From the NCBI GenBank assembly GCA_038893835.1, contig JAWAQR010000019.1, positions 1 to 26,653 of the forward strand: a stretch of DNA of 26,653 nt, in the 5' to 3' direction. Under the pieces are notes generated by a model. It saw only the letters and a list, made by a program, of their open reading frames with translations, did no database searches and was not told where the DNA came from. The position numbers were made by a program, and so were the translations under genes. Within the stretch, counting starts at the first letter, position 1; each line of letters starts with the position of its first letter. This document shows positions 3,031-16,631 of this stretch, piece by piece. The stretch comes from Archaeoglobaceae archaeon. GTDB lineage: Archaea; Halobacteriota; Archaeoglobi; Archaeoglobales; Archaeoglobaceae.

Positions 3031-3101
3031 AGCCAGGGCCCGGATTCGAACCGGGGTCAGCGGATCTGCAGTCCGCCGCATTGCCCCTCTGCCACCCTGG
3101 C
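3031..3101 (-). tRNA. tRNA-Cys (GCA), intronless, CCA not encoded
   Basis: The reverse complement reads GCCAGGGTGGCAGAGGGGCAATGCGGCGGACTGCAGATCCGCTGACCCCGGTTCGAATCCGGGCCCTGGCT. It has acceptor stem GCCAGGG/CCCTGGC, anticodon arm GCGGA-CT GCA GA-TCCGC, T-arm CCGG-TTCGAAT-CCGG and a U73 discriminator. A short T-tract follows. Confidence 0.97.
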
Positions 3102-3189: not shown

Positions 3190-3768
3190 ATGTTTAAATG
3201 CCACGTCTATGATTGGAAAGATATCGAGAGTCTATGTAGGAAGTTAGCAAGAAAGATAAAGTCTAGCGGTTTTAGAGTTGATGCAATCGTTGCCATTGCA
3301 AGAGGCGGTTGGGTTCCAGCGAGAATTCTTGCAGATTTTCTGGATGTAAAAGAACTCTACAGCATAAAAACGGAGCATTGGGGAATTGTTGCAACTATAA
3401 CTGGAAAAGCGACAATAACCCAGCCTTTGACAGTAAATCTCGAAGGGAAAAATGTTCTTATAGTTGACGACGTTGCGGATACGGGAGAGACGATGAAGAT
3501 AGTAAAGGAACACATAATTTCTTTAAAGGCGAAAGAAGTTAAGACTGCTGTTATTGATTACAAGAAAACTTCAGCTTTTGTTCCGGATTACTTCGCCGCG
3601 GAAATGGAAAGCTGGAAATGGATCGTTTATCCCTGGAGTATAAGGGAAGATATAAAAGGGTTGATTGCTAAAAAGGGGGCTAGAAATTTGGAGGAGGCTG
3701 TAATGGCTTTGAAGGAGTTTGGAGTTGAAATTGAAAATGATCTCCTCAGAGAAATTATCGAAGAGTGA
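3190..3768 (+). CDS. Type I phosphoribosyltransferase, probable purine (hypoxanthine/xanthine/guanine) salvage PRT
   Basis: AIARGGWVPA and PRPP-binding VLIVDDVADTGET, with C-terminal WIVYPW. It overlaps the adenine deaminase gene. Confidence 0.88.
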   Translation: MFKCHVYDWKDIESLCRKLARKIKSSGFRVDAIVAIARGGWVPARILADFLDVKELYSIKTEHWGIVATITGKATITQPLTVNLEGKNVLIVDDVADTGETMKIVKEHIISLKAKEVKTAVIDYKKTSAFVPDYFAAEMESWKWIVYPWSIREDIKGLIAKKGARNLEEAVMALKEFGVEIENDLLREIIEE

Positions 3769-5407
3769 TTTGAAGAGATTAATATTAGTTGCAGGAGGAA
3801 AAGAAAGAGCAGATTTGGTGATAAAGGGAGCGCAGGTTGTCAACGTGCTAACTGAGGAAATATATACTGCAGACATAGCAATTTGTGGAGATAGAATCGC
3901 AGGAATTGGGAAATACAGTGGTTTGAAGGAGATAGATGCAAGAAATCTTTACGCAGTTCCTGGTTTAATAGATGCACATACGCATGTTGAAATGAGCATG
4001 CTAACCTTGTCCGAATTTTCAAGAATCGTGGTGCCCAGGGGGAACACTTGCATCATAGCCGATCCACATGAAATTGCCAATGTTCTTGGTAAAAAGGGAA
4101 TTCTTTACATTTTGGAAGAGGCAAAAATTGCTCCTATAAGATTTTATTGCCTAATCCCATCCTGTGTCCCATCTTCCCCATTTGAAACAACTGGTGCAGA
4201 AATAGGTTTGGAAGACATAGAGGACCTCATGAAAATGGATGGAGTAATCGGTTTGGCTGAATTTATGAACTATCCAGCAGTGATAAACGCTGAGGATTTG
4301 GCTCTTGAAAAGATTTTAAGAGCTAAGCTAGTCGATGGGCATTGTCCAAAGGTTACGGGTAAGGATTTAAATGCCTACGTTGCAGCAGGCATTTCTTCGG
4401 ATCACGAGAGCACTGAAATAAATGAAGCTGAGGAAAAGCTGAGATTGGGTATGAGGATAATGATTAGAGAAGGCTCAGCTGGAAGAAATTTAAGAAACTT
4501 GAAGAAAATTGCAGGAAAAAAATACACGATGCTGGTTACAGATGGTGATAGAAGTGTGAAGGATTTAATTCGCGAAGGCTATTTGGATAGTGTTTTAAGA
4601 AAAGCAATTGCGGAGGGAATTGATGAAATTAAGGCTCTGCAGATGGTCACAATAAATCCGGCAGAGTATTTTAGAATTAATGCAGGACTACTCGCTCCAG
4701 GTAGATTTGCTGATTTGGTCTTGGTTAGAGATTTGAGGAGTTTTGATGTTAAAAAAGTTTTTGTTGGTGGAAAAGAGCCTGAATTTAAGTTTTATCACTA
4801 TCCCAACGATGCCAAAAGTACGGTTAATGCTAAGATTTTAAAAGAGGAGGATCTGTACATCGAAAAGGGTAGAGCTAGGATTATAGAGATATTCGATGGC
4901 GAAATCGTTACTGGCGAAACAATTGAATTCGTGGAAGGAATCGATGTTAAAAGGGACATATTGAAAGCTGTGGTTGTGGAAAGACATCGTAAAACTGGAA
5001 GATTTGGAAAGGCATACGTTAGAGGGTTTGGATTGAAAAAAGGAGCAATTGCGCAAACAATAGCACATGATGCGCACAACATCGTTGCAATTGGAACAAG
5101 TGATGAGGGAATTTGTAGGGCTGTAAACAGATTGATCGAAATAGGTGGAGGAATAGTTGTTTACGATGGAGAATTTTTTGAATTACCTTTAAGAATTGCT
5201 GGATTGATGAGCGATGAAAGTGCTGAAGAAGTTGCTGAGAAGCTGGAAATAATAGAGGAGAAATTGAAAGAGCTTGGATGTAAGTTGAAATCACCCATAA
5301 TTACTCTGTCCTTTATAGCGCTACCAGTGATTCCAAAGTTGAAGCTTACAGATCTTGGATTGATCGACGTCGAAAGGTTTTCAGTTGTGGAACCTGTTTT
5401 GGTTTGA
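3737..5407 (+). CDS. ade: Adenine deaminase
   Basis: PGLIDAHTH, ADPHEIANVLG, PSCVP, LAEFMNYP, DGH, SDHE, IREGS and AHDAHNI. The ATG at 3737 is preferred over the TTG at 3719. Confidence 0.93.
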   Translation: MISSEKLSKSDLKRLILVAGGKERADLVIKGAQVVNVLTEEIYTADIAICGDRIAGIGKYSGLKEIDARNLYAVPGLIDAHTHVEMSMLTLSEFSRIVVPRGNTCIIADPHEIANVLGKKGILYILEEAKIAPIRFYCLIPSCVPSSPFETTGAEIGLEDIEDLMKMDGVIGLAEFMNYPAVINAEDLALEKILRAKLVDGHCPKVTGKDLNAYVAAGISSDHESTEINEAEEKLRLGMRIMIREGSAGRNLRNLKKIAGKKYTMLVTDGDRSVKDLIREGYLDSVLRKAIAEGIDEIKALQMVTINPAEYFRINAGLLAPGRFADLVLVRDLRSFDVKKVFVGGKEPEFKFYHYPNDAKSTVNAKILKEEDLYIEKGRARIIEIFDGEIVTGETIEFVEGIDVKRDILKAVVVERHRKTGRFGKAYVRGFGLKKGAIAQTIAHDAHNIVAIGTSDEGICRAVNRLIEIGGGIVVYDGEFFELPLRIAGLMSDESAEEVAEKLEIIEEKLKELGCKLKSPIITLSFIALPVIPKLKLTDLGLIDVERFSVVEPVLV

Positions 5408-5455
5408 GTTTGATTTAACGAAAAAACTTATTACCACTACTCTCAAATTTTCTCA

Positions 5456-6418
5456 ATGATCGAAGAAGAAATACTAGATATACTTGCTGAATTTGGTCCA
5501 TTGAGCTCTCAGGAGATTGAAAAAGAGCTCCAAAGTCGAGGTTTTAACATAACATCAAGAACTGTTAGATATCATTTGAGAAAACTCGAAAAAAAAGGTT
5601 TTGTAGCCAAGGGGAATTATGGAAAGACTCAGATAACTGTTGAGGGTATAGAATTTCTTAGAGGATCCAAAGCTTCTGAAAGACTTGGAGAGTTCAGTGA
5701 AAGAATTGAAATAAATGTTTATACGTGTGATTTTGATGTTTACAAAATGAGGGGAAAGGTTCCGACGAATTTGGCGATTATAGGTAAGGAGGATTTCGAA
5801 ACCTGTCATCGTGTTTTGGCTGAAATGGAGGAATTTCCATTCATCATTCATCGGGGTGTTTTCTTCGCAGACGAGGGTGAGGATTTGAATGACAGAGAAG
5901 TGCCGAAAGGTCATTTCGCTTTAGCAACAATTTCAAATACTATATACGATGTTTTGCTTAGATCTAAAGGTGTGAACACCCATCCAGAATTTGCAGCACT
6001 AATTGGTGTTGAAAAAATGACTCCAAATAGAATTCTTGAACTCATAAGTTACTCCGGAACAACTATGAGCCCCGGATGGCTTTTATTACGTTCTGGATTA
6101 ACTTCCATAAACTCTGTTTTAAAGACTGGAAATGGGGTGATAATATCGGCTGTTAGAAGTTTTAGCAGATATGCAATCGACATAGTGCTCCGCACAATCG
6201 AGATTGCAAACTCCAAGGGTTTTAGAGGTGTACTTGCAATTCTTCATCCATCCGACAAACGCTTTAGCCTTCCAGTTGGCAGAAGGGCGAGATTGATAGT
6301 CAGCGCCGGATTGAACCATTTGGCTCCCCTGCATGAGATGGGGATAAAGATGGATATAAAGGTCAATGAGATATTTGTTGAATTCTCCAAGTTCAAACCA
6401 GTTAGCAACATAAAATAA
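5456..6418 (+). CDS. NrpR-family transcriptional regulator (N-terminal winged HTH plus a single NrpR/DUF128 regulatory domain)
   Basis: wHTH segment LSSQEIEKEL..RGFNITSRTVRYHLRKLEKKGF. NRD-like segments FDVYKMRGKVPTN, ATISNTIYDVLL, ELISYSGTTMSP and AGLNHLAPLHEMGI. Confidence 0.8.
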   Translation: MIEEEILDILAEFGPLSSQEIEKELQSRGFNITSRTVRYHLRKLEKKGFVAKGNYGKTQITVEGIEFLRGSKASERLGEFSERIEINVYTCDFDVYKMRGKVPTNLAIIGKEDFETCHRVLAEMEEFPFIIHRGVFFADEGEDLNDREVPKGHFALATISNTIYDVLLRSKGVNTHPEFAALIGVEKMTPNRILELISYSGTTMSPGWLLLRSGLTSINSVLKTGNGVIISAVRSFSRYAIDIVLRTIEIANSKGFRGVLAILHPSDKRFSLPVGRRARLIVSAGLNHLAPLHEMGIKMDIKVNEIFVEFSKFKPVSNIK

Positions 6419-6427
6419 TTATCTTAA

Positions 6428-6457
6428 TTGGCAAAACACTTCCAAAAAATTTAAATA
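6428..6457 (+). promoter_or_regulatory. Imperfect palindrome (candidate operator) abutting the BRE/TATA promoter of the TAXI-TRAP operon
   Basis: TTGGCA-AAACAC-TTCCAA (6428-6445), then AAAA and TATA box TTTAAATA (6450-6457). The ATG at 6478 fits a leaderless transcript. Confidence 0.6.
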
Positions 6458-6477
6458 TCACAAAAACAATAAGAATT

Positions 6478-7506
6478 ATGGTGAGGAAAAAAGTGCTCAT
6501 ATTATTGACGCTGCTAGCAATTGTAGCCCTTTCAGCGTGCCAGCAACCAACTCCAACGCCAACTCCAACTCCCACACCAACACCAACTCCGACAAGTCCA
6601 ACCTCCTTAACAATAGCTTCCGGGACTGTTGGTGGAGTTTATATTTACTACTGCTCTGGGCTCGCATCGATTTATTCTAAGTATTTGAACATCTCAGCAA
6701 ATGCTGTGCAGACAAAGGCTAGTGTCGATAATCTACTTTACGTTTACAAATCACCAAAGGACACGATAGGAATTTCACTGATAAAATCCGTTCACGATGC
6801 TTGGCACGGAAATCTGGAGGCATTTGAAAAAAAGCCACAGAATTGGATAAGGGTTCTCTGGGTAACTTATGTAACGCCGATACACATCGTTACGACCTCA
6901 GATAGTGGAATAAAGAGTGTTTACGATCTCAAAGGCAAAAGAGTATCTACTGGAGCACCAGGTAGTGGAACTGAGATTGATGCGCTGGCCATTTTGAAAG
7001 CTGCAGGAATAGATCCGTCGAAAGATTTTTCAGTCTGGCAAAAGCTTGGTGCAAAGGAATCTGCTGACGCTTTGTTAGATGGAAAACTCGACGCTTATTT
7101 CTGGAGTGGAACTATTCCTACAGCTTCAGTTTCCGAGCTTGCAACGAATTTGAAGCAGAGAGGAAAGCAAATATCGTTCATAGCGGTTCCAAATGAAGTT
7201 GTAGAAAAGCTTAACGAACTATATCCGGGGCTTTATGTGGCGGATGTGATGAAGAAGGAGTACTACGGTTCACCAGAAGATGTTCAAACAGTCTCAACGC
7301 TCAACGTGATGTTCTGTCACAAGGATTTGCCTGAAGATTTTGTATACAGACTTGTAAAGACTACTTTTGAGCATCTCGACGAGCTCTATGCAGTGCATCC
7401 GGCTGCCAAACAGACGACTTTGGAAAACGCCATGATGTATAAGGGTGATGTTCCATATCATCCGGGGGCGCTGAAGTACTTTAAAGAGAGGGGAGTGTTG
7501 AAGTGA
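6478..7506 (+). CDS. TAXI-family TRAP transporter solute-binding lipoprotein
   Basis: Signal peptide with lipobox LSAC and a Pro/Thr linker. TAXI motifs TIASGTVGGVY, ASVDNL, DLKGKRVSTGAPGSGTE, DGKLDAYF and VPYHPGALKYFKERG. Confidence 0.92.
   Translation: MVRKKVLILLTLLAIVALSACQQPTPTPTPTPTPTPTPTSPTSLTIASGTVGGVYIYYCSGLASIYSKYLNISANAVQTKASVDNLLYVYKSPKDTIGISLIKSVHDAWHGNLEAFEKKPQNWIRVLWVTYVTPIHIVTTSDSGIKSVYDLKGKRVSTGAPGSGTEIDALAILKAAGIDPSKDFSVWQKLGAKESADALLDGKLDAYFWSGTIPTASVSELATNLKQRGKQISFIAVPNEVVEKLNELYPGLYVADVMKKEYYGSPEDVQTVSTLNVMFCHKDLPEDFVYRLVKTTFEHLDELYAVHPAAKQTTLENAMMYKGDVPYHPGALKYFKERGVLK
6547..6594 (+). repeat. Coding hexamer repeat (CCN-ACN) x8 encoding a (Pro-Thr)8 linker
   Basis: ccaactccaacgccaactccaactcccacaccaacaccaactccgaca directly follows the lipidated Cys-Gln-Gln. 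Confidence 0.9.
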
Positions 7507-7877
7507 ATAAACTAGTTTTCACCCTTATTTTTTTAACCCTTCTACTTTCTGATTTGGAAAGCTCGATCATATGTGTTGAGGGCAAAAGGATCAACTCTCA
7601 GAGTTTCGAGCTGGAATTTAGACACTCTATCCATGGAGGTAAAATTGCCCTATATGCAAGTGTTAGGGATGGAAAAATCCTCATTGAGAAAATGATCAGC
7701 GATGATGAAGCATCGATCTCCTATTACACATCCCAATATTCCCGCGAGGATGGAAAATTCGTGGCAATTCTGAATGAAGAAGTCGGGGAAATGCTGGTAA
7801 ACGAGGGTTGGAAGTTGAAAGCAAAAGGATATGAATTTGAAACGAATAGATTGACGAGAATTTTAGTATGCAGGTGA
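7503..7877 (+). CDS. DUF1850-like small protein associated with TAXI-TRAP systems
   Basis: N-terminal hydrophobic stretch and FELEFRHSIH, resembling the DUF1850 F-x-L-x-(Y/F)-x-H-S motif. It lies between the binding protein and permease genes with a GTGA overlap. Confidence 0.65.
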   Translation: MNKLVFTLIFLTLLLSDLESSIICVEGKRINSQSFELEFRHSIHGGKIALYASVRDGKILIEKMISDDEASISYYTSQYSREDGKFVAILNEEVGEMLVNEGWKLKAKGYEFETNRLTRILVCR

Positions 7878-7881
7878 TTTC

Positions 7882-9912
7882 ATGAGTTTTGCAAAATACT
7901 TTGGTGGTTTTTTAGCATTTTATAGTATATTTATAATATTTTATCCATATTTTATTCCTTACCTCCTCTGGCTTCCTCCTGTGGTTAGATACTGTTTTGA
8001 CCAAATTCACCTCATAAGGAGCTTGCACCTGATGTTTTGCATGGGAGCACTAGCTTTCATGGCTTATGGGAAGAGAACGAGTTTAATCAGTAATTTGATC
8101 CTTTCTACACTATCTTTACCCTGTGCAATGGTATTGGCAATCGTAGCTATGGATGTATTCATTTCTCTCTTGATAATCCTTCTCTGGTTTGTAACCTTCC
8201 CATTGGACGCCTTGCTTGGATATTTAAAAAGACAAGTCAGCTGGAAGTCTGTTCTTTTAATTCTTTACATTCCCGCAACAATTTATTTAATAATTGATTA
8301 TGAAAAAATTATTTACAGAGTTGTTTTTCCAAATACTCTCGACATTTTAGTCGGCTGGCTCATGGTTCTCCTTCTCCTTTACGCAACCAATATCAAGATC
8401 GGCTGGCCGTTGCCTGCGATCGTTCTAATCTTTCTCAACTACACATTTTTGGGTCATCAAATTTCTCCTCCTATCGGGCATACGTTCAGAGATGTAGCGT
8501 TGGCAATTGGTAAAGCTTGGATGGAAACTGAAGCTGGAATTTTTGGTCTTCCTCTTGGCGTTTCGGCGAAATACATAGTTTACTTCACGATTCTGGCTGG
8601 TGTATTGCAAGCTATAGGAATAACGAAGTTCATTTCCGATTTTGCTTCTGTATTCCTTGGAAGATCCCCACAGGATGTTGGTAGAGCTACTACGGCTTAT
8701 TCAGCTGTGATGGGAATGGTTTCTGGCTCAGGAGTAGCTGTAACGACAACGGTTGCCACAACGATGTTACCTTCTTTCAGAAAAGCTGGATATGATGAAA
8801 AGTTCTCTTCAGCCTTTATAGCTGGAACAGGAACTGCAGCTCTGATAACTCCACCAATTCTTGGAGCTGCAGCGTTCATAATGATGGAAGTTATGGGTAT
8901 AGATTATAAGACTCTTATAATAATGACAATTTTACCAGCTCTATTGTATTATATTTCACTTCAAATATATCTGGAGCTTTATACGAGGAAGATTGGATTG
9001 ACTAGACAAATAGAGGGAGAAAAGAAGAGCAAAAAAGAGGTTTTGAAAGAAATCTACATGTTTCTACCAATAGTAATTCTAATCTTCATGATCTTTCAGG
9101 GTTATACGATAGCGATATCGGTAATCACCGCAATCTTTGTGGCCTTTGCAATCGGGTTGTTAAGGAAGGTTAAAGTCGTGGAAATAATCAAAGGTTTCTC
9201 CAATGGTGCACTGGACGTAATTCCCGTCGCTCTTGCATGTGCTTGTGCGGGGATAATACTTCATTCCCTCCTCGTCACTGGACTTGGGATGAAGATAGAA
9301 GAAATTGTTAGATTTTTGAGCGCCGGGAATTACTATATAACCTTAGTTCTTCTTGCAATCTTCACTTTAATCCTTGGAATGGGAGTTCCACCAACTGCGA
9401 GTTACGTGATAGTTTCAGCCCTCGTCGTTCCTACAACGATAAAACTCGCCATAGCGAATGGCTTTCCTGAAATGATAGCACATTACAGCGTTCATGTGTT
9501 CGCTTTTTACTATGCAATCCTCGCAGATGTAACCCCTCCAGTAGCTCTGGCAGCTTACGCTGCTGCAGCGGTTGCAGGGCAAAATCCGTTAAGAGTAGCT
9601 ATAGTTGCGGCGAAGATAGCAATAATAAAATACCTTATGGCCTTTACCTTTGTCCTTTCTCCTGCTGGCTCGGCTTTGCTCATAATAACCCATTTAGATA
9701 ATCCTTTAGAAATAATCTTTAGGACTTTACTAGTTGTAATCTCTGCATTAGCCATAAACAGCGCTAGTGTTGGATACTTTAGAAAGGAGTTGAATCTGGG
9801 TAAAAGGATTCTTTTATTCATAGCAGGATTGGCTTTGATATTTCCATTTCCGATTGGCAATATTTTGGGACTGATTTTAGTCTTTGTAATCCTTTTACTT
9901 GAATTTCGTTAA
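7882..9912 (+). CDS. TRAP transporter fused permease (4TM/12TM, DctQM-like)
   Basis: Highly hydrophobic 676 aa protein with GIFGLPLGVSA, GMVSGS, PPILGAAAFIM, LILGMGVPPTASY and ADVTPPVALAAYAAA. A Shine-Dalgarno-like AGGTGA precedes the ATG. Confidence 0.93.
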   Translation: MSFAKYFGGFLAFYSIFIIFYPYFIPYLLWLPPVVRYCFDQIHLIRSLHLMFCMGALAFMAYGKRTSLISNLILSTLSLPCAMVLAIVAMDVFISLLIILLWFVTFPLDALLGYLKRQVSWKSVLLILYIPATIYLIIDYEKIIYRVVFPNTLDILVGWLMVLLLLYATNIKIGWPLPAIVLIFLNYTFLGHQISPPIGHTFRDVALAIGKAWMETEAGIFGLPLGVSAKYIVYFTILAGVLQAIGITKFISDFASVFLGRSPQDVGRATTAYSAVMGMVSGSGVAVTTTVATTMLPSFRKAGYDEKFSSAFIAGTGTAALITPPILGAAAFIMMEVMGIDYKTLIIMTILPALLYYISLQIYLELYTRKIGLTRQIEGEKKSKKEVLKEIYMFLPIVILIFMIFQGYTIAISVITAIFVAFAIGLLRKVKVVEIIKGFSNGALDVIPVALACACAGIILHSLLVTGLGMKIEEIVRFLSAGNYYITLVLLAIFTLILGMGVPPTASYVIVSALVVPTTIKLAIANGFPEMIAHYSVHVFAFYYAILADVTPPVALAAYAAAAVAGQNPLRVAIVAAKIAIIKYLMAFTFVLSPAGSALLIITHLDNPLEIIFRTLLVVISALAINSASVGYFRKELNLGKRILLFIAGLALIFPFPIGNILGLILVFVILLLEFR

Positions 9913-9920
9913 TCTATTTT

Positions 9921-9950
9921 TTGGTCATTTATTGCCGAAAAATTTATTAA
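9921..9950 (+). promoter_or_regulatory. Second candidate operator plus BRE/TATA promoter, upstream of glutaryl-CoA dehydrogenase
   Basis: TTGGTC-ATTTAT-TGCCGA (9921-9938), then AAAA and TATA box TTTATTAA (9943-9950). The 22-bp offset to the TATA is the same as at 6428. Confidence 0.55.
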
Positions 9951-9980
9951 TTAAATTGGAAAGTTAAATTGGTGATTTAG

Positions 9981-11180
9981 ATGTTTAAGGGGGTTGACTT
10001 CTACAACATCGATGAACTCCTGACAGAAGAAGAGAGGTTGGTTAGAAATTCTGTTCGAGAGTTTATGGAAAAGGAAATAGCACCTCTTGTAGCAGAAGCT
10101 TGGCATAAGGAAGAACCACTAGATTTCAGAGAGATTGGAAAGAAGTTTGGAAAACTCGGCATGCTTGGATCGTTCATTCCTGAAGAATATGGCTGCCCAG
10201 GGATGAATTATACTTCCTTTGGCCTGATATGTCAGGAGGTGGAAAGAGTAGACAGTGCTCTGCGAAGTTTTGTTGCCGTAACTTCTGGGCTTGTCATGTT
10301 CCCAATTTGGAAGTATGGAAGTGAGGAACAGAAGAAGAAATATCTTCCAAAGCTTGCAAAAGGAGAAATAATAGGCTGCTTTGGAATGACCGAACCAAAT
10401 GTTGGAAGCGATCCGGCAAGCATGGAAACGAATGCTAGGAGAGATGGAGATGAGTGGATTTTAAATGGAACGAAGACTTGGATAAGTGAAGCTGAAATTG
10501 CTGACATTGCAATAGTTTGGGCTAGAGATGTGAGCGATGGGAAGATAAAAGGATTTATAGTCGAGAGAGGAATGAAAGGATTTAAGCAGTCTGCCATAAA
10601 GAAAAAAGGCTCGATGAGGGCTGGAGACGTTGGAGAGCTATATCTAACAGATTGCAGGGTTCCTGAAGAGAACAGACTGCCGAATGCAGTTGGATTGAGA
10701 CCTGCTTTGAGCTGTCTGGATCAAGCAAGGTTTGGAATTGCTTGGGGAGCAATAGGGGCTGCTATGGATTGTTATGAGACTGCTTTGAATTATGCAAAGA
10801 ATAGAAAGCAGTTTGGTGCACCGATTGCAGCCTATCAGCTTGTGCAAGCGAAGCTTGTGGACATGTTCACCGAAATAACGAAGGGACAATTGATAGCTTG
10901 GCGTTTAGGAAGACTGATGGATGAGGGGAAAGCAACTCCTGAGCAAATCTCACTTGCAAAGAGAAACAACGTTAGAGTTGCAAGATTCTGTGCAAGAACA
11001 GCAAGAGAGATACTTGGAGCTAATGGAATTAGCCTAGATTATTCTCCAATCAGGCACATGGCGAACATAGAGAGCGTTTACACTTATGAAGGGACGGATG
11101 ATATACACACGCTTATACTTGGAAGATACATAACAGGAATTCAAGCTTTCAGGAGGGAGTTGAGATTTGAAACCATTTGA
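9981..11180 (+). CDS. gcdH: Glutaryl-CoA dehydrogenase (acyl-CoA dehydrogenase family)
   Basis: GCDH-type motifs EVERVDSALRS, GCFGMTEPNVGSDPASM, ARFGIAWGAIGAA, ISLAKRNN, AREILGANGI and RHMANIESVYTYEGTDDIHTLILGR. Confidence 0.88.
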   Translation: MFKGVDFYNIDELLTEEERLVRNSVREFMEKEIAPLVAEAWHKEEPLDFREIGKKFGKLGMLGSFIPEEYGCPGMNYTSFGLICQEVERVDSALRSFVAVTSGLVMFPIWKYGSEEQKKKYLPKLAKGEIIGCFGMTEPNVGSDPASMETNARRDGDEWILNGTKTWISEAEIADIAIVWARDVSDGKIKGFIVERGMKGFKQSAIKKKGSMRAGDVGELYLTDCRVPEENRLPNAVGLRPALSCLDQARFGIAWGAIGAAMDCYETALNYAKNRKQFGAPIAAYQLVQAKLVDMFTEITKGQLIAWRLGRLMDEGKATPEQISLAKRNNVRVARFCARTAREILGANGISLDYSPIRHMANIESVYTYEGTDDIHTLILGRYITGIQAFRRELRFETI

Positions 11181-12351
11181 GGATTTGTTGGTCATCGAGC
11201 TGGCACAAGCTGTTGCTGGACCTTATATAGGCACTTTACTCGCAGATCTTGGGGCGGAAGTCATTCATGTAGAGCGTCCAAAGATTGGTGACTTAGCTAG
11301 ACACTGGATACCAATAAGAAAAGATCTAAGCTTTTACTTTGCAGTTGTGAACAGAAACAAGAAGTCAATGACCTTGGATTTGAAGAGTGAGGAGGGGAGG
11401 AGAATATTCTTGAAGCTTGCAGAGAAAGCGGATGTAATAATAGAGAACTTCGTTCCAGGTGTCGTTGATTCACTTGGCGTTGGTTATGAGCATGTTAAAA
11501 AGGTAAATCCAAGAGTTATTTACTGCCACGTTTCTGGTTTCGGACAAAATGGCCCCTATCGTGATCGACCCGCATTTGATCAACTTATACAGGGAGAAGC
11601 AGGAATAATAAGTTACACTGGGACGAAAGAAACTCCGTGCAAAATAAATGTTCCAATCACAGATATTCTGGCTGCGATGTATGGAGTTTATGCAATTCTC
11701 GCCGCTCTGCTTAGGAGAGAGAAAACTGGTGAGGGGGCGGAGATAGATATATCCTTATTCGACTGTGCGGTCACGATGATGATGAATCTCATGAACATGG
11801 CAATTGTGGAGGGTATGAAGGATGAAGATCTAAGAATGGGGACTAAGTACTTCCTAGCAACACCCTATGAGCCTTATCCAGCAGGAGATGGGAAGTTGGT
11901 GAACATAGTAGTTGCAACCGAGTGGCATTGGGAAGCTTTTTGCAAGGCGATAGGTCTTGAGGAATTGACAAGAGATGAGAGATTTAAGACGAATCAGCAA
12001 AGATTGAAGCATAGAGAGGAGTTGGAGAAAATAATAATTGAGAAATTAAAGGAGAAGGGAAGGGATGAGTGGATAGAAATCCTTCTAAAAGCAGGTGTGC
12101 CTTGCGGGGCTGTTAATGAGATAATGGAAGTCATAGAGCATCCACAAACGAAGTTCAGGAAAGTTGTGGTTGAGGTGGAGTATCCAGAGCTTGGAAAAAT
12201 AAAGATGTTTAACAACCCGGTGAAGATATCTGGAGTTGAATTTGAAGTTAAAAGACCTCCGAAGCTTGGAGAGCATACGGAGGAGATATTGAGGAAGTTA
12301 GGTTATTCTGATGAAGAAATCGCTAGGTTAAGGGAAAGAGGGGTAATTTAA
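11167..12351 (+). CDS. Family III (CaiB/BaiF) CoA-transferase, candidate succinyl-CoA:glutarate CoA-transferase
   Basis: AGPY..LADLGAEVIHVERP, NRNKKSMTLDLK, ENFVPG, SGFGQNGPY, the catalytic Asp region VPITDI and PPKLGEHT. It overlaps gcdH by 14 bp. The substrate is inferred from context. Confidence 0.88.
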   Translation: MKPFEDLLVIELAQAVAGPYIGTLLADLGAEVIHVERPKIGDLARHWIPIRKDLSFYFAVVNRNKKSMTLDLKSEEGRRIFLKLAEKADVIIENFVPGVVDSLGVGYEHVKKVNPRVIYCHVSGFGQNGPYRDRPAFDQLIQGEAGIISYTGTKETPCKINVPITDILAAMYGVYAILAALLRREKTGEGAEIDISLFDCAVTMMMNLMNMAIVEGMKDEDLRMGTKYFLATPYEPYPAGDGKLVNIVVATEWHWEAFCKAIGLEELTRDERFKTNQQRLKHREELEKIIIEKLKEKGRDEWIEILLKAGVPCGAVNEIMEVIEHPQTKFRKVVVEVEYPELGKIKMFNNPVKISGVEFEVKRPPKLGEHTEEILRKLGYSDEEIARLRERGVI

Positions 12352-12376
12352 TAAATAATAATTAAATTTATCAAAT

Positions 12377-12720
12377 TTGTTTGCGAAATATGTTGCAAGT
12401 GACACGGAAATGTTAAAGTTCAGCATTAAAAACGTTTTCTTCATCGACGTCTTCACTCAGTATTATTTAAACGAATATGGTCAGTTCGTGGTTGGGGATA
12501 GGTATAGAGATAAGGAAATTTTTGATTTTTTTAGCAGCTATATATGCTGATATGAACGACTTTAATAATCTCGGACAACATTTCCCTTTTCCTTAACCTC
12601 AGAGTTGAGTGAGCTAAAAGAACATCGTTTATCGGGTTCTGGATTTGGCAAATGTCGTTATAAACGTAGAGGGCCGATAAGCGACTCCTCAGGTTTACGA
12701 TAGATGAGGATACGCGTAGA
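12377..12720 (+). pseudogene. Possible decayed remnant of a KaiC/RAD55-like ATPase-domain gene
   Basis: Consecutive fragments in three frames: YVASDTEMLKFSIKNVFFIDVFTQYY... (12377-12550), TTLIISDNISLFLNL (12556-12612), KNIVYRVLDLANVVINVEG (12618-12680) and LLRFTIDED (from 12685). They are colinear with KaiC-like motifs. Recognised by eye only. Confidence 0.4.
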
Positions 12721-12738
12721 CACTTCAAGAGACGTAGC

Positions 12739-13485
12739 TTAGCATTCGTATTTAAAGTTGAAGTCGACTACGAAGTTTCTCAGAACTCCTATCTTTTCTA
12801 TTTCCACTTCAACAACATCCCCCTTTCTTAGCATTCCAACTCCGGCAGGAGTTCCTGTGGCTATTATATCCATTGGTTCCAGGGTCATTATGGAAGAAAT
12901 GAACTCGATCAAGTTTGGAACATCGAAGATCATGTTTGAAGTATTAGACTTTTGTCTAATTTCTCCATTCACCCTTGTGACTATTTTAAGCTTTGAAACA
13001 TCCTCAAGCTCGGCTATGTATGGGCCGATTGGGGCGAATGTATCAAAGCTCTTCGCTCTTGTCCATTGACCATCTCTTGCCTGAATGTCTCTTGCAGTGA
13101 CATCGTTGAAGCAGGTGAACCCAAGAATGAATTCCATCGCATCCTCTTTTGATACATTCTTGCACCTCTTTTTAATAACCACCGCAAGCTCCCCCTCGTA
13201 ATCGACTCTCTTTGTTATATTTGGAATTATTATTGGATCTCCATCGCCTATAACAGCACTTGGAGGCTTCAAAAATATTATTGGCTCTTCTGGAATCGGC
13301 ATTCCGAGCTCGTTTGCATGATCGACGTAGTTTAAACCAACGGCAACTATCTTACTAGGCTTTGCTGGAGGTAAAAACTTTACCGCACTCAGAGGAAATT
13401 CGAGAGAATCGAAGATAAGTCTATCTTTATAGATTTCAAATTTCCCTTCATAAAGGTTTCCATAAGCTAGAAATCTGCCAATCAT
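12739..13485 (-). CDS. Fumarylacetoacetate hydrolase family protein
   Basis: KIVAVGLNYVDHA, PIIFLKP, DYEGELAVVI, NDVTARD, WTRAKSFDTFAPIGP and IATGTPAGVG. Confidence 0.92.
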   Translation of the reverse strand: MIGRFLAYGNLYEGKFEIYKDRLIFDSLEFPLSAVKFLPPAKPSKIVAVGLNYVDHANELGMPIPEEPIIFLKPPSAVIGDGDPIIIPNITKRVDYEGELAVVIKKRCKNVSKEDAMEFILGFTCFNDVTARDIQARDGQWTRAKSFDTFAPIGPYIAELEDVSKLKIVTRVNGEIRQKSNTSNMIFDVPNLIEFISSIMTLEPMDIIATGTPAGVGMLRKGDVVEVEIEKIGVLRNFVVDFNFKYEC

Positions 13486-13988
13486 TTTAACTTTTCAACC
13501 TCCTTTTTAAAAAACTCTACTTGGTCCTTATTTATATCGATGAATATGATTTTTTTAAGCTTTGTTCCATGTTCGACATGTTTTTTGAGCTCCTCAACCA
13601 TGATCTTCGCAACTAAATCCTTAGGCAAACCACCTACTCCAGTTCCTAATGCTGGAAAGGCTATGCTCTCTATTCCCAACTCTTCAGCCTTTTTCAACGC
13701 AGCCCTCATCGCGAGTCTAACTTTATTTTCATCTGTTTTAAAATCCAGTTCCATCGTAGGGGAATGGATAACAAACTTAGCCTTTAACTTTCCGGCAGAT
13801 GTTACAATTGCCTCTCCAATTTTAATTGGCCCTTTTTTAACAGCTTCCCTCTCTATTTCCTCACCTCCAGCCCTTTTTATTGCCCCTGCCACACCCCCTC
13901 CCATGTAAAGATGCGTGTTTGCCGCATTTACTATGGCATCGACTTCTATCTTTGTTATATCTCCATGAACCACTTCCACTTCAACCAT
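13482..13988 (-). CDS. Macro-domain (ADP-ribose-binding) protein
   Basis: GDITKIEVDAIVNAAN, MGGGVAGAI, GEAIVTSAG and SIAFPALGTGVGG. It has a 4-bp overlap with the FAH gene and its own TATA-like element (GAAAAGTTTTTAGT on the minus strand, about 14009-14021). Confidence 0.92.
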   Translation of the reverse strand: MVEVEVVHGDITKIEVDAIVNAANTHLYMGGGVAGAIKRAGGEEIEREAVKKGPIKIGEAIVTSAGKLKAKFVIHSPTMELDFKTDENKVRLAMRAALKKAEELGIESIAFPALGTGVGGLPKDLVAKIMVEELKKHVEHGTKLKKIIFIDINKDQVEFFKKEVEKLK

Positions 13989-16023: not shown

Positions 16024-16157
16024 ATAGGGTATCGTCTCCTTAATGTTTAAGCTTTACTGAATTGATCTTCCATTGTTGTAGAAAGTTACAATTCTCAAAC
16101 CTGCACAAGTTTTAAAAATCTCACAGATATGCGCAAGTTGAGCTTGAGGCGACTGAT

Positions 16158-16631
16158 ATGAAGGCGGTAATATTGATGGGATCAAAGGCGGATTTGGAGT
16201 TTTGCAAGCAAATAGCTGAAAAATTGAAGATTTTTGGAATAGATAATGAGCTGAGGGTAGCATCGGCTCATAAAACACCAGAACATGTTTTAAAGATATT
16301 AAAAGATTATGAAAATGAAGACGTTGTGTTTGTAACAGTTGCTGGAAAAAGTAACGCACTGAGTGGATTTGTTGATGCGAATACGACAAAACCTGTAATT
16401 GCAGCACCACCGATTGGAGATAAGTGGATAGATTTGTTCTCAAGCATAAGAATGCCAACAGGAGTTGCACCGATGCTTGTTTTGGAAGCTGAAAACGTTG
16501 CAGTTGCGGTAGCGAAAATATTTGCAATCAAGTATGAAAAGGTTAGGAATGCAATTATGGATTATCAGAGGAAGAAGAGAGAAGAAGTTATTGAGGCTGA
16601 TGAGGAGGTGAAGGGAAATGGGGAGCGTTAA
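16158..16631 (+). CDS. purE: AIR carboxylase PurE, class II-type signature
   Basis: ILMGSKAD, ASAHKTP, VAGKSNALSGFVD and SSIRMPTGV. Confidence 0.9.
   Translation: MKAVILMGSKADLEFCKQIAEKLKIFGIDNELRVASAHKTPEHVLKILKDYENEDVVFVTVAGKSNALSGFVDANTTKPVIAAPPIGDKWIDLFSSIRMPTGVAPMLVLEAENVAVAVAKIFAIKYEKVRNAIMDYQRKKREEVIEADEEVKGNGER

Follow-up and report, generated by a model that had tools for sequence, protein, structure and literature searches.

A predicted two-promoter regulon for the use of a C5 dicarboxylate, probably glutarate, associated with a single-domain NrpR-family protein in an Archaeoglobaceae archaeon

The window analysed here, a stretch of 26,653 nt from contig JAWAQR010000019.1 (assembly GCA_038893835.1), belongs to an Archaeoglobaceae genome of 1.17 Mb that is 97% complete; the host is a hot-spring archaeon. 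Between positions 5456 and 12351 lie six co-oriented forward-strand genes, and an ORF check of the window recovered every one of them where the initial annotation had placed it. Their spacing is operon-like. The TAXI gene and a small ORF overlap by 4 nt, the adjacent glutaryl-CoA dehydrogenase (gcdH) and CoA-transferase genes overlap by 14 nt and are probably co-translated, and the two intergenic gaps in the cluster measure 59 and 68 nt.

The first gene (5456–6418, forward strand) encodes a 320 aa regulator that combines an HTH_12 winged helix-turn-helix (69.6 bits) with a single NRD1_2 domain (PF01995; 195.8 bits), and the profile of the regulator family matched the NRD of MJ0159 (PDB 3nek) with 122 bits. 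An N-terminal winged helix of this type joined to an NrpR regulatory domain is also found in NrpR of Methanococcus maripaludis and in the NrpRI/NrpRII pair of Methanosarcina, and the stretch corresponding to the recognition helix is conserved in alignment with the methanogen-type NrpR rows. A genome-wide profile search with PF01995 showed, however, that there is no separate canonical NrpR, the regulator being the sole gene with this domain, and that the genome also differs from the NrpR systems in having no NRD-only partner protein. In a phylogenetic tree the regulator fell within a clade of 31 rows comprising Archaeoglobales only (SH-aLRT 98), which is split from the methanogen-type and bacterial NrpR rows by a branch with 99% SH-aLRT support. 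Because of this separate clade, and because it carries one NRD instead of the two of canonical NrpR, we regard the regulator as something other than a canonical NrpR, as had been supposed. Its layout of one NRD with an HTH domain presumably resembles that of Methanosarcina NrpRI.

Downstream of the regulator gene lies a gene for a TAXI-type TRAP solute-binding lipoprotein (6478–7506, forward strand; TIGR02122, 275.3 bits, cut-off 84) and, beyond the small ORF, one for a fused DctQM-type TRAP permease (7882–9912, forward strand; TIGR02123, 413 bits, cut-off 321; DctM, 207 bits), so that both transport assignments of the initial annotation were borne out by scores above cut-off. A TAXI binding protein with a single fused membrane component is likewise the arrangement of the characterised TAXI-TRAP systems, namely VcGluP and TtGluBP for glutamate and a Proteus mirabilis TAXI system for alpha-ketoglutarate (PMC11574862); our literature search found no TAXI protein for glutarate. 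The protein described here differs from those systems in being lipid-anchored, its sequence showing a lipoprotein-type signal and a linker rich in Thr and Pro, and it matched all solved TAXI proteins at about 115 bits each. In a phmmer alignment at that score of only about 115 bits, it keeps the residues aligned to the carboxylate contacts of VcGluP, whereas the two VcGluP side chains in contact with the amino group, Gln93 and Glu125, give way to Leu and Thr. A paralogous, aminotransferase-linked TAXI protein keeps Gln and Glu at these alpha-amino-group positions. We therefore propose, from this alignment, that the TAXI protein may be a dicarboxylate receptor, with glutarate as its putative ligand. 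The small ORF (7503–7877, forward strand; 124 aa) is a further difference from the characterised systems. It is conserved in 7/7 genomes of the genus with 33 invariant columns, yet it matches no Pfam family even at E values up to 10. The label of DUF1850-like given to it earlier holds by position, the ORF in the same place of a relative's TAXI-TRAP cluster matching DUF1850 with 33.7 bits (cut-off 27), but not by family, and a profile of the small ORF and six orthologues gave a weak match to that DUF1850-positive counterpart (hhalign E 0.053, 12 columns).

The fifth gene (9981–11180, forward strand) encodes an acyl-CoA dehydrogenase with three Pfam domains, assigned as a glutaryl-CoA dehydrogenase of the decarboxylating type. 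In a PDB search it scored 397–464 bits against ten glutaryl-CoA dehydrogenase (GCDH) sequences, as compared with 309 bits for ACX4, the highest of the other solved acyl-CoA dehydrogenases, 231 bits for the non-decarboxylating enzyme 3mpi and 226 bits for SCAD; the assignment is thus supported by this score gap and not by any NCBIfam equivalog cut-off. In the alignment the counterparts of human Arg94, Tyr369 and Glu370 are an Arg residue and a Tyr-Glu-Gly motif; in GCDH this Arg binds the terminal carboxylate, and Tyr-Glu-Gly forms the catalytic motif (PMC3169403, PMC8360864). The last gene (11167–12351, forward strand) encodes a family III CoA-transferase, as predicted (CoA_transf_3, 416 bits). 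The best NCBIfam model for this protein, succinate--glutarate CoA-transferase, gave 312.9 bits against a cut-off of 750, the formyl-CoA and oxalate transferase models scored nearly as well, and no equivalog cut-off was reached. Human SUGCT matched with 262.6 bits, about the same score as that of the top PDB match, and an Asp residue aligns with the catalytic Asp of SUGCT. We propose that the enzyme may act as a succinyl-CoA (or other acyl-CoA):glutarate CoA-transferase.

The published NrpR operator consensus is the palindrome GGAA-N6-TTCC (PMC2723118), and one intergenic site in the window lies within one mismatch of it. This predicted operator, O(TAXI) (6430–6443; 14 bp, one mismatch), directly abuts the elements of the TAXI promoter (6444–6457, forward strand), an A-rich BRE-like hexamer followed by a TATA-like octamer; these and all other BRE, TATA and start sites were assigned by eye from the archaeal consensus. 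The TAXI start codon is located 20 nt downstream of the TATA-like element, and the mRNA is therefore probably leaderless or nearly so. A site with no or one mismatch, ending 34–38 nt before the TAXI start, is present in 7/7 genomes of the genus, which are close kin and represent roughly one lineage; independent support comes from the other genera. A second, variant operator is predicted at the internal gcdH promoter (BRE-like and TATA-like elements at 9937–9950, forward strand). This O(gcdH) (9923–9936) has a GG-N10-CC frame with three mismatches to the consensus and abuts the BRE/TATA-like stretch just as O(TAXI) does; among the same close kin it is conserved in place in 7/7 genomes, in all of which it exceeds one mismatch, and it is on position and frame that its assignment is based. 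The composite pattern of operator and promoter occurs at five places genome-wide, three of them 22–32 nt before an ORF, and two of these three are O(gcdH) and O(TAXI). Outside the genus a site with at most one mismatch was found at 11/11 visible gcdH promoters, four of them exact, and gcdH of genome G034 has one further exact site. At the TAXI and gcdH promoters each site with at most one mismatch is directly followed by an A-rich BRE-like and TATA-like stretch. Operator-type sites mark these promoters only where such a regulator exists; none of the eight gcdH promoters of congeneric genomes that lack any NrpR-family gene (0/8) has a site with at most one mismatch.

Conservation of the gene neighbourhood, a check that had been proposed with the initial annotation, was also borne out. 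Among 19 congeneric genomes, orthologues of the regulator, the CoA-transferase and the TAXI protein are present in the same six, their presence and absence coinciding in 19/19, and all six have full six-gene synteny. In other genera the orthologous regulator lies alongside gcdH with the transporter and the activating enzyme exchanged, so that regulator, operator and gcdH form the constant core. The transporter is either TAXI-TRAP (seven genomes, one genus) or a LivK-type ABC system, for which the full LivKHMGF set was scanned in loci L043 and L082 and LivK and LivH queries were matched in L086, L087 and L090. For activation the loci have the CoA-transferase or, in L087, a SucC/SucD-like ligase pair, a layout also read from ORF sizes in L088 and L061. 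Within the clade, as sampled by species-representative genomes, gcdH lies inside 14/19 loci; three of the remaining five have gcdH and the CoA-transferase gene elsewhere in the genome, but with the operator. One clade genome (G062) has no gcdH at E ≤ 1e-100, and in G063 both gcdH copies are cut by contig ends. GCDH orthologues occur in 17/19 congeneric genomes, 11 of which are without the module. In congeneric genomes without the regulator GCDH is found alone and without an operator, and GCDH therefore also serves another, unregulated route.

Every in silico check proposed earlier thus came out in favour of the original interpretation, and we consider it probable that the cluster, with its two promoters, forms a regulon for using a C5 dicarboxylate taken up from outside, glutarate being the likeliest candidate, and that its expression is set by the single-domain NrpR-family protein. 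The substrate would be external because two unrelated types of binding-protein transporter are attached in different genera, it would be a free diacid needing activation because the transferase is replaced non-orthologously by a SucCD-like ligase, and glutaryl-CoA is favoured as the dehydrogenase substrate by the GCDH-clade score gap together with the conserved Arg and Tyr-Glu-Gly motif. The acid would be imported by the TAXI lipoprotein and the fused TRAP permease, converted to glutaryl-CoA by the family III CoA-transferase and then to crotonyl-CoA and CO2 by the GCDH-clade dehydrogenase, with electrons passing to ETF; beta-oxidation enzymes encoded elsewhere would complete the path to acetyl-CoA. 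The description of the module as self-contained is correct as far as crotonyl-CoA and no further, ETF alpha/beta, seven enoyl-CoA hydratase matches, 3-hydroxyacyl-CoA dehydrogenases and thiolases being encoded elsewhere in the genome. Mammalian SUGCT and GCDH follow the same two steps, and so, we assume, do Pseudomonas-type gcdH-gcoT glutarate operons with the LysR-type regulator GcdR. The adjacent, overlapping gcdH and CoA-transferase genes are a further point of resemblance. The present cluster differs from those bacterial operons in the unrelated family of its regulator, in its archaeal host and in the attached TAXI-TRAP or ABC importer. If this reading is true, the NrpR regulator family may extend beyond nitrogen control.

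As for the regulatory step, the regulator, probably as a dimer, would bind the GGAA-N6-TTCC-type palindrome immediately bordering the TAXI BRE/TATA stretch on its upstream side, and the weaker variant site at the internal gcdH promoter may also be its target. This position differs from that of canonical NrpR operators, which are found on the downstream side of the TATA box, immediately past the transcription start (PMC5512572), and instead resembles that of EarA and the Sulfolobus ara-box factor, whose sites lie directly upstream of BRE (PMC5512572). Those proteins, however, belong to unrelated families and activate weak promoters, whereas the BRE/TATA-like elements here look strong and the relatives of the regulator are repressors, so that either sign of regulation is possible. 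We have a slight preference for repression through blocked access of TFB/TBP, lifted by binding of glutarate or glutaryl-CoA to the NRD, over ligand-dependent activation from the same position. This would mean that the NRD, whose fold responds to 2-oxoglutarate in nitrogen control, may have shifted to a carbon substrate.

A different account is that 2-oxoglutarate has remained the ligand of the regulator, reporting nitrogen status, and that the module is part of a nitrogen-scavenging programme, in which a lysine-derived omega-amino acid, for example 5-aminovalerate, would be imported and transaminated onto 2-oxoglutarate, leaving the CoA-transferase and GCDH to dispose of the glutarate skeleton. 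The operator and recognition helix are indeed those of the canonical nitrogen repressor, NrpR of M. maripaludis also controls uptake of organic nitrogen through an alanine symporter (PMC2723118), and glutamate is bound by characterised TAXI proteins. A class III aminotransferase gene is, moreover, divergently adjacent to the regulator gene in four congeneric genomes and two genes away, across an Exo_endo_phos gene, in G029, and such a gene lies alongside all members (3/3) of a separate NrpR-like clade, once together with TAXI-TRAP. Yet the orthologue of this aminotransferase in the window's genome (81% identical) is encoded on a different contig, with no site of at most one mismatch in the 200 nt upstream of it, none of the modules examined contains an aldehyde dehydrogenase, what constantly accompanies the regulator is gcdH and an acid-activating enzyme, neither of them with a role in nitrogen handling, and the TAXI protein lacks both amino-group ligands that its aminotransferase-linked paralogue keeps. 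Linkage to glnA/amt control was not seen either: the 300 nt in front of each of the two glnA genes contain no NrpR operator with at most one mismatch, and no Amt or PII genes were found in the 97% of it that is covered. We thus consider this account unlikely; judged by its genes and promoters, the cluster in this genome is not a nitrogen regulon, its predicted targets being organic-acid transport and catabolism and not, as for NrpR, nif, glnA or amtB.

It is quite unlikely, in our view, that the regulon is real but serves another acid (adipate, 3-hydroxy- or 3-methylglutarate, glutaconate or, as the transported compound, 2-oxoglutarate) or an internal route, in which the breakdown of pimelate, benzoate or lysine would supply the glutaryl-CoA and the transferase would recycle CoA. 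SUGCT-type enzymes take several dicarboxylates (PMC10871334), alpha-ketoglutarate is the specific substrate of one of the characterised TAXI systems (PMC11574862), and both the CoA-transferase scores below every equivalog cut-off and the 11 congeneric genomes with GCDH but no module (17 having GCDH, six the module) would fit such a reading. The dehydrogenase scores and motifs nevertheless favour glutaryl-CoA itself, the two transporter types an external substrate and the SucCD-like ligase a free diacid. Finally, although sites within one mismatch of the consensus are frequent, numbering 824 genome-wide (background 0.73 per kb, against 0.8 per kb in the loci), the window count of 23 against 16.4 expected is not significant alone and the genomes of the genus are close kin, it is very improbable that the gene order reflects chance or inherited synteny and the operator-like sites A/T-rich promoter noise, a reading that fits the data poorly because the site keeps its position against the BRE/TATA-like stretch in several genera with otherwise differing intergenic sequence and in the three genomes in which regulator and gcdH are unlinked, and is missing from 8/8 gcdH promoters where there is no regulator, and because regulator, transferase and TAXI protein agree in presence or absence in 19/19 congeneric genomes.

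The initial annotation had proposed that genes for glutarate import, CoA activation and oxidation form a regulon under a member of the NrpR family, and our analysis supports this interpretation of a regulon of known catabolic logic with an NrpR-family regulator at its head. The six co-oriented genes described there are indeed present as six plus-strand ORFs between 5456 and 12351. The regulator (5456-6418, 320 aa) comprises an HTH_12 winged helix (PF08461, 69.6 bits, residues 4-68) and one copy of the NrpR regulatory domain or NRD (PF01995, 195.8 bits, residues 78-314). It is followed by a TAXI solute-binding protein, which bears a signal of the lipoprotein type and a linker rich in Thr and Pro, a 124-aa ORF without a family, a fused TRAP permease, an acyl-CoA dehydrogenase recognized by its Pfam domains (gcdH) and a family III CoA-transferase (PF02515, 416 bits, residues 5-371). 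The TAXI gene shares 4 nt with the small ORF, and gcdH shares 14 nt with the CoA-transferase gene, so that the only sizeable intergenic gaps in the cluster are those before the TAXI gene (59 nt) and before gcdH (68 nt). Identification of a TAXI-TRAP transporter, with a TAXI binding protein and a single fused membrane subunit, is secure in that both proteins exceed their NCBIfam cut-offs (TIGR02122, 275.3 bits against 84.35; TIGR02123, 413 bits against 320.65). The description of the small ORF as DUF1850-like holds for its position only: neither the window ORF nor an ortholog matches PF08905 at E values up to 10, but its positional counterpart in genome G032 matches DUF1850 at 33.7 bits, and alignment of the two by hhalign gives an E value of 0.053. 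The genome (1.17 Mb, 35 contigs, 97% complete), of which the window is contig 19, has closest database relatives labelled Archaeoglobaceae or Archaeoglobales, and DNA near-identical to the window is present in hot-spring metagenomes. Within the regulator, TAXI, permease, gcdH and transferase genes, some stretches are covered by contigs of metatranscriptome run X7 that are 90-99% alike, although, as assemblies from an RNA library, these show neither transcription, levels nor transcript ends; run X10 yielded nothing, and stretches left uncovered carry no meaning.

The catabolic logic attached to the regulator is a known one. When the dehydrogenase was compared with all PDB sequences, it scored 397-464 bits against ten glutaryl-CoA dehydrogenase (GCDH) sequences (from Thermus, Burkholderia, human and others), the next-best scores being 309 for peroxisomal ACX4, 231 for the non-decarboxylating Desulfococcus GDH and 226 for a short-chain acyl-CoA dehydrogenase (ACAD). 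In alignment, the catalytic Glu, the Tyr preceding it in the Tyr-Glu-Gly motif and an Arg near residue 90 are identical to those of the human and Burkholderia enzymes. In published accounts of these residues, the Glu abstracts and returns a proton, and the Tyr forms a pair with the Arg and is in contact with the terminal carboxylate, the group lost as CO2 (PMC3169403, PMC8360864). No NCBIfam equivalog cut-off was reached by the dehydrogenase, the best models being Staphylococcus FadE (297.6 bits, cut-off 600) and the Desulfococcus-type GDH (273.1 bits, cut-off 470), with no model for decarboxylating GCDH among the matches, and the assignment therefore rests on clade and residues; the gap in PDB scores and the retained Arg, Tyr and Glu nevertheless argue that the glutaryl-CoA dehydrogenase call in the initial annotation is probably correct. 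The CoA-transferase is a full-length CoA_transf_3 protein in which, once the construct offset is counted, an Asp aligns to the Asp of human succinate/glutarate CoA-transferase (SUGCT) matching catalytic Asp212. Its PDB scores for human SUGCT (262.6 bits) and for an entry named 'formyl-CoA transferase' (263.4 bits) are level, with no solved enzyme closer; among NCBIfam models it scores highest with succinate--glutarate transferase NF052585 (312.9 bits, cut-off 750), formyl-CoA transferase models being slightly behind at 276-284 bits. Since ETF alpha and beta, several enoyl-CoA hydratases, 3-hydroxyacyl-CoA dehydrogenases and thiolases are encoded elsewhere in the genome, crotonyl-CoA has an onward route.

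The regulator is a variant of a known family. It matched nothing in a single-sequence search of the PDB, a family profile matched entry 3nek at 122 bits by sequence, with no liganded structure among the matches, and its recognition-helix stretch is conserved in alignment with methanogen-type sequences. Whether the genome also holds a separate canonical NrpR had been raised as a question, and it does not, the regulator being its sole PF01995 gene. In a quick maximum-likelihood tree of 68 NrpR-like sequences, the regulator lies inside a clade of 31 (SH-aLRT 98), the named members of which are nearly all Archaeoglobales, and which is itself nested in a radiation of 37 sequences from Archaeoglobales only (SH-aLRT 99). 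Beyond the latter branch lie HTH-plus-NRD proteins from families elsewhere in the phylum, a group of bacterial sequences and two Methanobrevibacter loci, in which NrpR has two consecutive NRD matches as against one in the window regulator. The regulator is thus set apart from canonical NrpR, that side of the tree being represented by methanogen-type sequences and the two Methanobrevibacter loci, with the characterised methanogen NrpR unplaced by name. Database names within the clade are generic ('NrpR regulatory domain-containing', 'DUF128'), and a 2007 table lists NrpR (COG1693) among proteins common to methanogens and A. fulgidus without giving a function. The one clade member with a divergent label is L088, from a record titled Thermoplasmatales archaeon JdFR-43, which carries gcdH, two SucC/SucD-sized ORFs and a clade regulator whose sequence is that of database protein P0032; given its Archaeoglobales relatives, a binning or labelling issue or a transfer is possible.

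Comparative evidence suggests that the regulator binds an operator of the GGAA-N6-TTCC type, which is the published NrpR consensus (PMC2723118). The predicted operator at 6430-6443 has one mismatch and is the sole intergenic site in the window with at most one; an A-rich hexamer and a TATA-like octamer follow it directly, 20 nt before the TAXI start, and a site with no or one mismatch occupies the same place in the TAXI promoter of all seven genus genomes. At the gcdH promoter, a site with this frame and abutment is conserved across the genus (9923-9936 in the window), here with three mismatches. Outside the genus, all 11 gcdH promoters visible in genomes with a clade regulator (an ortholog of the window protein) have a site with no mismatch (four cases) or one, its end 45-60 nt from the start and BRE/TATA-like sequence immediately after it; in three of them the regulator is unlinked to gcdH and the CoA-transferase gene, and the operator was forecast before the promoter was inspected. 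By the same threshold, eight gcdH promoters from congeneric genomes that lack NrpR-family genes altogether are all without a site, the background of such sites being 0.7-0.8 per kb. Less was learned from counts: the window holds 23 sites with at most one mismatch against 16.4 expected, a figure reached in 8 of 100 shuffles and not significant alone, and a loose whole-genome pattern was uninformative (36 matches, 22 in the reversed control). A tighter operator-plus-promoter pattern gave five matches in the genome, one of which, before a sugar-nucleotidyltransferase-like gene on contig 7, was taken as chance because it is not palindromic; seven genomic sites with at most one mismatch are followed by promoter-like sequence. 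An exact site precedes gcdH in genome G034, where the only NrpR-like genes are paralogs. On contig 8 of G034 (L061), an 18-kb stretch with an NrpR-like paralog, a DctM permease, an AtuA-family gene, gcdH and SucC/SucD-sized ORFs contains seven intergenic operator-like sites (3300-4560 and 9900-10090), three of them exact, and looks like a multi-promoter NrpR-family regulon.

The position of the predicted operator bears on the mode of control. One source places the operators of canonical NrpR downstream of the TATA box, directly behind the transcription start, and gives the position immediately upstream of the BRE as the typical binding site of archaeal activators (PMC5512572). The window operator, in contrast to the canonical arrangement, ends where a BRE-like hexamer begins, upstream of a TATA-like box, and a dimer bound at this edge could either hinder or recruit TFB. 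As the BRE/TATA-like elements look strong and the known family members are repressors, we lean, by a modest degree, to repression that would be relieved by ligand rather than to activation. The presumed targets also differ, in that canonical NrpR, which 2-oxoglutarate releases from DNA, acts on nif, glnA and glnK-amtB, whereas here no site with at most one mismatch was found within 300 nt upstream of either of the two glnA genes, and the 97% complete genome gave no match for Amt or PII.

What the module imports can be approached through the TAXI protein. The solved TAXI proteins all score alike against it, at about 115 bits, and the ligand contacts of VcGluP, the glutamate-binding TAXI protein of Vibrio, were mapped through a low-scoring alignment to 8s4j. 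In VcGluP, Tyr45, Ser75 and Gly156 contact the carboxylates, and the side chains of Gln93 and Glu125 contact the alpha-amino group (PMC11574862). The former are kept in the window protein (Tyr55, Ser82 and Gly164) and the latter are replaced (by Leu101 and Thr133), a pattern that, as far as such an alignment allows, suits a ligand that bears carboxylates but lacks an amino group. At the two replaced positions Gln and Glu are retained by a paralogous TAXI protein in G032, whose gene lies with those of a DUF1850 protein, a fused permease and a class III aminotransferase. This bears on the main rival explanation, in which 2-oxoglutarate is still the signal and the module is the tail of a nitrogen-scavenging route from 5-aminovalerate. 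Aminotransferases do occur near some of the regulators, as such a route would have it; however, the ortholog in the window genome is on another contig and has no operator, the window TAXI protein lacks the amino-group ligands of VcGluP, and the constant partners of the module are nitrogen-free.

Control of a dicarboxylic acid module, the reading we prefer, is also consistent with what is conserved and what is exchanged around the regulator. Within the genus, the regulator and orthologs of the transferase (87-88% identical) and TAXI protein (82-87%) occur in the same six of 19 other genomes, with the six-gene order the same in all six, while a dehydrogenase ortholog is present in 17; at nine gcdH loci from genomes without the regulator, gcdH stands alone, the 7-8 kb retrieved on either side containing none of its five partners. 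The orthologous regulator outside the genus (52-59% identical) is again beside gcdH, and of 19 clade loci from species-representative genomes 14 have gcdH, four do not and one ends at a contig edge, so that the neighbourhood conservation looked for across Archaeoglobi was found. The transporter is TAXI-TRAP in the window's genus; in locus L082, gcdH and the CoA-transferase gene are accompanied by a full LivKHMGF-type ABC system, and L086 and L090 have the same order with LivK and LivH matches. In L087, gcdH is followed by SucC-like and SucD-like subunits and then LivK, and ORFs of the same sizes follow gcdH in L088 and L061, where the likeness is read from size. Because transporter and acid-activating enzyme are swapped for non-homologous equivalents while regulator and gcdH stay, the predicted substrate that fits is a free external dicarboxylic acid needing import and thioesterification. 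A diacid other than glutarate is a possible substrate, and it is very unlikely that the synteny arose by chance. In four congeneric genomes (L073-L076, 7650-8871, minus strand), a class III aminotransferase gene divergently adjoins the regulator where the window has adenine deaminase; its ortholog in the window genome (81% identical) is on contig 10 at 5130-6356.

Other NrpR-like proteins of the Archaeoglobales are found in a range of contexts, among them DctM-type permeases, SatP-type channels with an MFS transporter, and a LivK-type binding protein. A separate clade (SH-aLRT 100) lies beside a class III aminotransferase gene in all three of its members (L050:1881-8157 in G032, L041:562-2862 in G029 and L071:5951-8285 in G036), that in G032 also adjoining a TAXI protein, a DUF1850 protein and a fused TRAP permease. 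Intergenic regions of this clade have no GGAA-N6-TTCC site with at most one mismatch, nor do those of the SatP-linked and mutase-cluster-linked lineages; the aminotransferase-linked clade could represent an omega-amino-acid module with a different operator. The mutase cluster is a conserved co-oriented set containing an NrpR-like gene (L067:1132-12994 in G037, L068 in G038 and L070 in G032). By Pfam, L067 includes hydantoinase B/oxoprolinase, a V4R/XylR_N protein, an ACAD, a B12-binding subunit with acyl-CoA mutase, a family III CoA-transferase, ferredoxin with aldehyde:ferredoxin oxidoreductase (AFOR) and an ADP-forming CoA ligase; the order in L068 and L070 is equated with it from ORF sizes together with matches to ACAD, CoA-transferase and NrpR alone. 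In the loci examined, where immediate neighbours were scanned, no nitrogen-assimilation gene adjoins the regulator. A tentative and rather doubtful extension of these observations is that the Archaeoglobales NrpR family would not regulate nitrogen at all, having radiated instead into one-component sensors of organic acids and related compounds, in at least six lineages (beside gcdH modules, TRAP permeases, SatP-type channels, LivK-type binding proteins or class III aminotransferases, or inside the mutase/ACAD/CoA-transferase/AFOR cluster), with the NRD retuned from 2-oxoglutarate to ligands such as glutarate and the gcdH-linked members acting as ligand-dependent activators from the upstream edge of the BRE. 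If true, the NrpR family would gain its first role in activation and its first in carbon catabolism.

In the literature searched, NrpR is described solely as a euryarchaeal nitrogen repressor sensing 2-oxoglutarate, and we found no paper tying it to TRAP/TAXI transport, glutarate or carbon catabolism in a search whose coverage excluded most subscription journals. The window therefore offers a concrete case in which the same fold and the same operator as NrpR are predicted to control a carbon-catabolic regulon, with defined promoters, candidate ligands (glutarate, glutaryl-CoA and 2-oxoglutarate) and natural controls in the congeneric genomes that have neither regulator nor operator. The position of the operator poses a mechanistic question, that of TFB occlusion versus recruitment. 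A candidate archaeal glutarate pathway with an uptake system, and a candidate glutarate-binding TAXI protein, would be further gains, neither of which we found in the literature searched, and the case also points to a group of thermostable sensors for acids whose operator is known.

The surroundings of the module yielded some minor observations. Upstream lie genes for adenine deaminase and a phosphoribosyltransferase and downstream, in convergent orientation, a fumarylacetoacetate-hydrolase (FAH)-family gene and a macro-domain gene, all housekeeping and outside the module. An Rfam scan of the window found a tRNA gene (RF00005, 63.3 bits; 3031-3101, minus strand), upstream of the phosphoribosyltransferase gene, and nothing else, so the 387-nt non-coding gap between the convergent CoA-transferase and FAH-family genes (12352-12738) is without a match; a scan for bacterial promoters and terminators, models that are not applicable to archaeal promoters, gave results at shuffle level. 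A 157-aa ORF without a Pfam family (16054-16527, minus strand) adjoins a malate/lactate dehydrogenase gene. No operator was seen at the FAH-family and macro-domain genes (12739-13988, minus strand), which are syntenic in all six congeneric loci. An FAH-family ortholog, 70% identical, lies about 1.1 kb from an unlinked regulator in two other genomes (L083:4054-4806 and L089:11047-11799), and the linkage may reflect shared ancestry of gene order or function.
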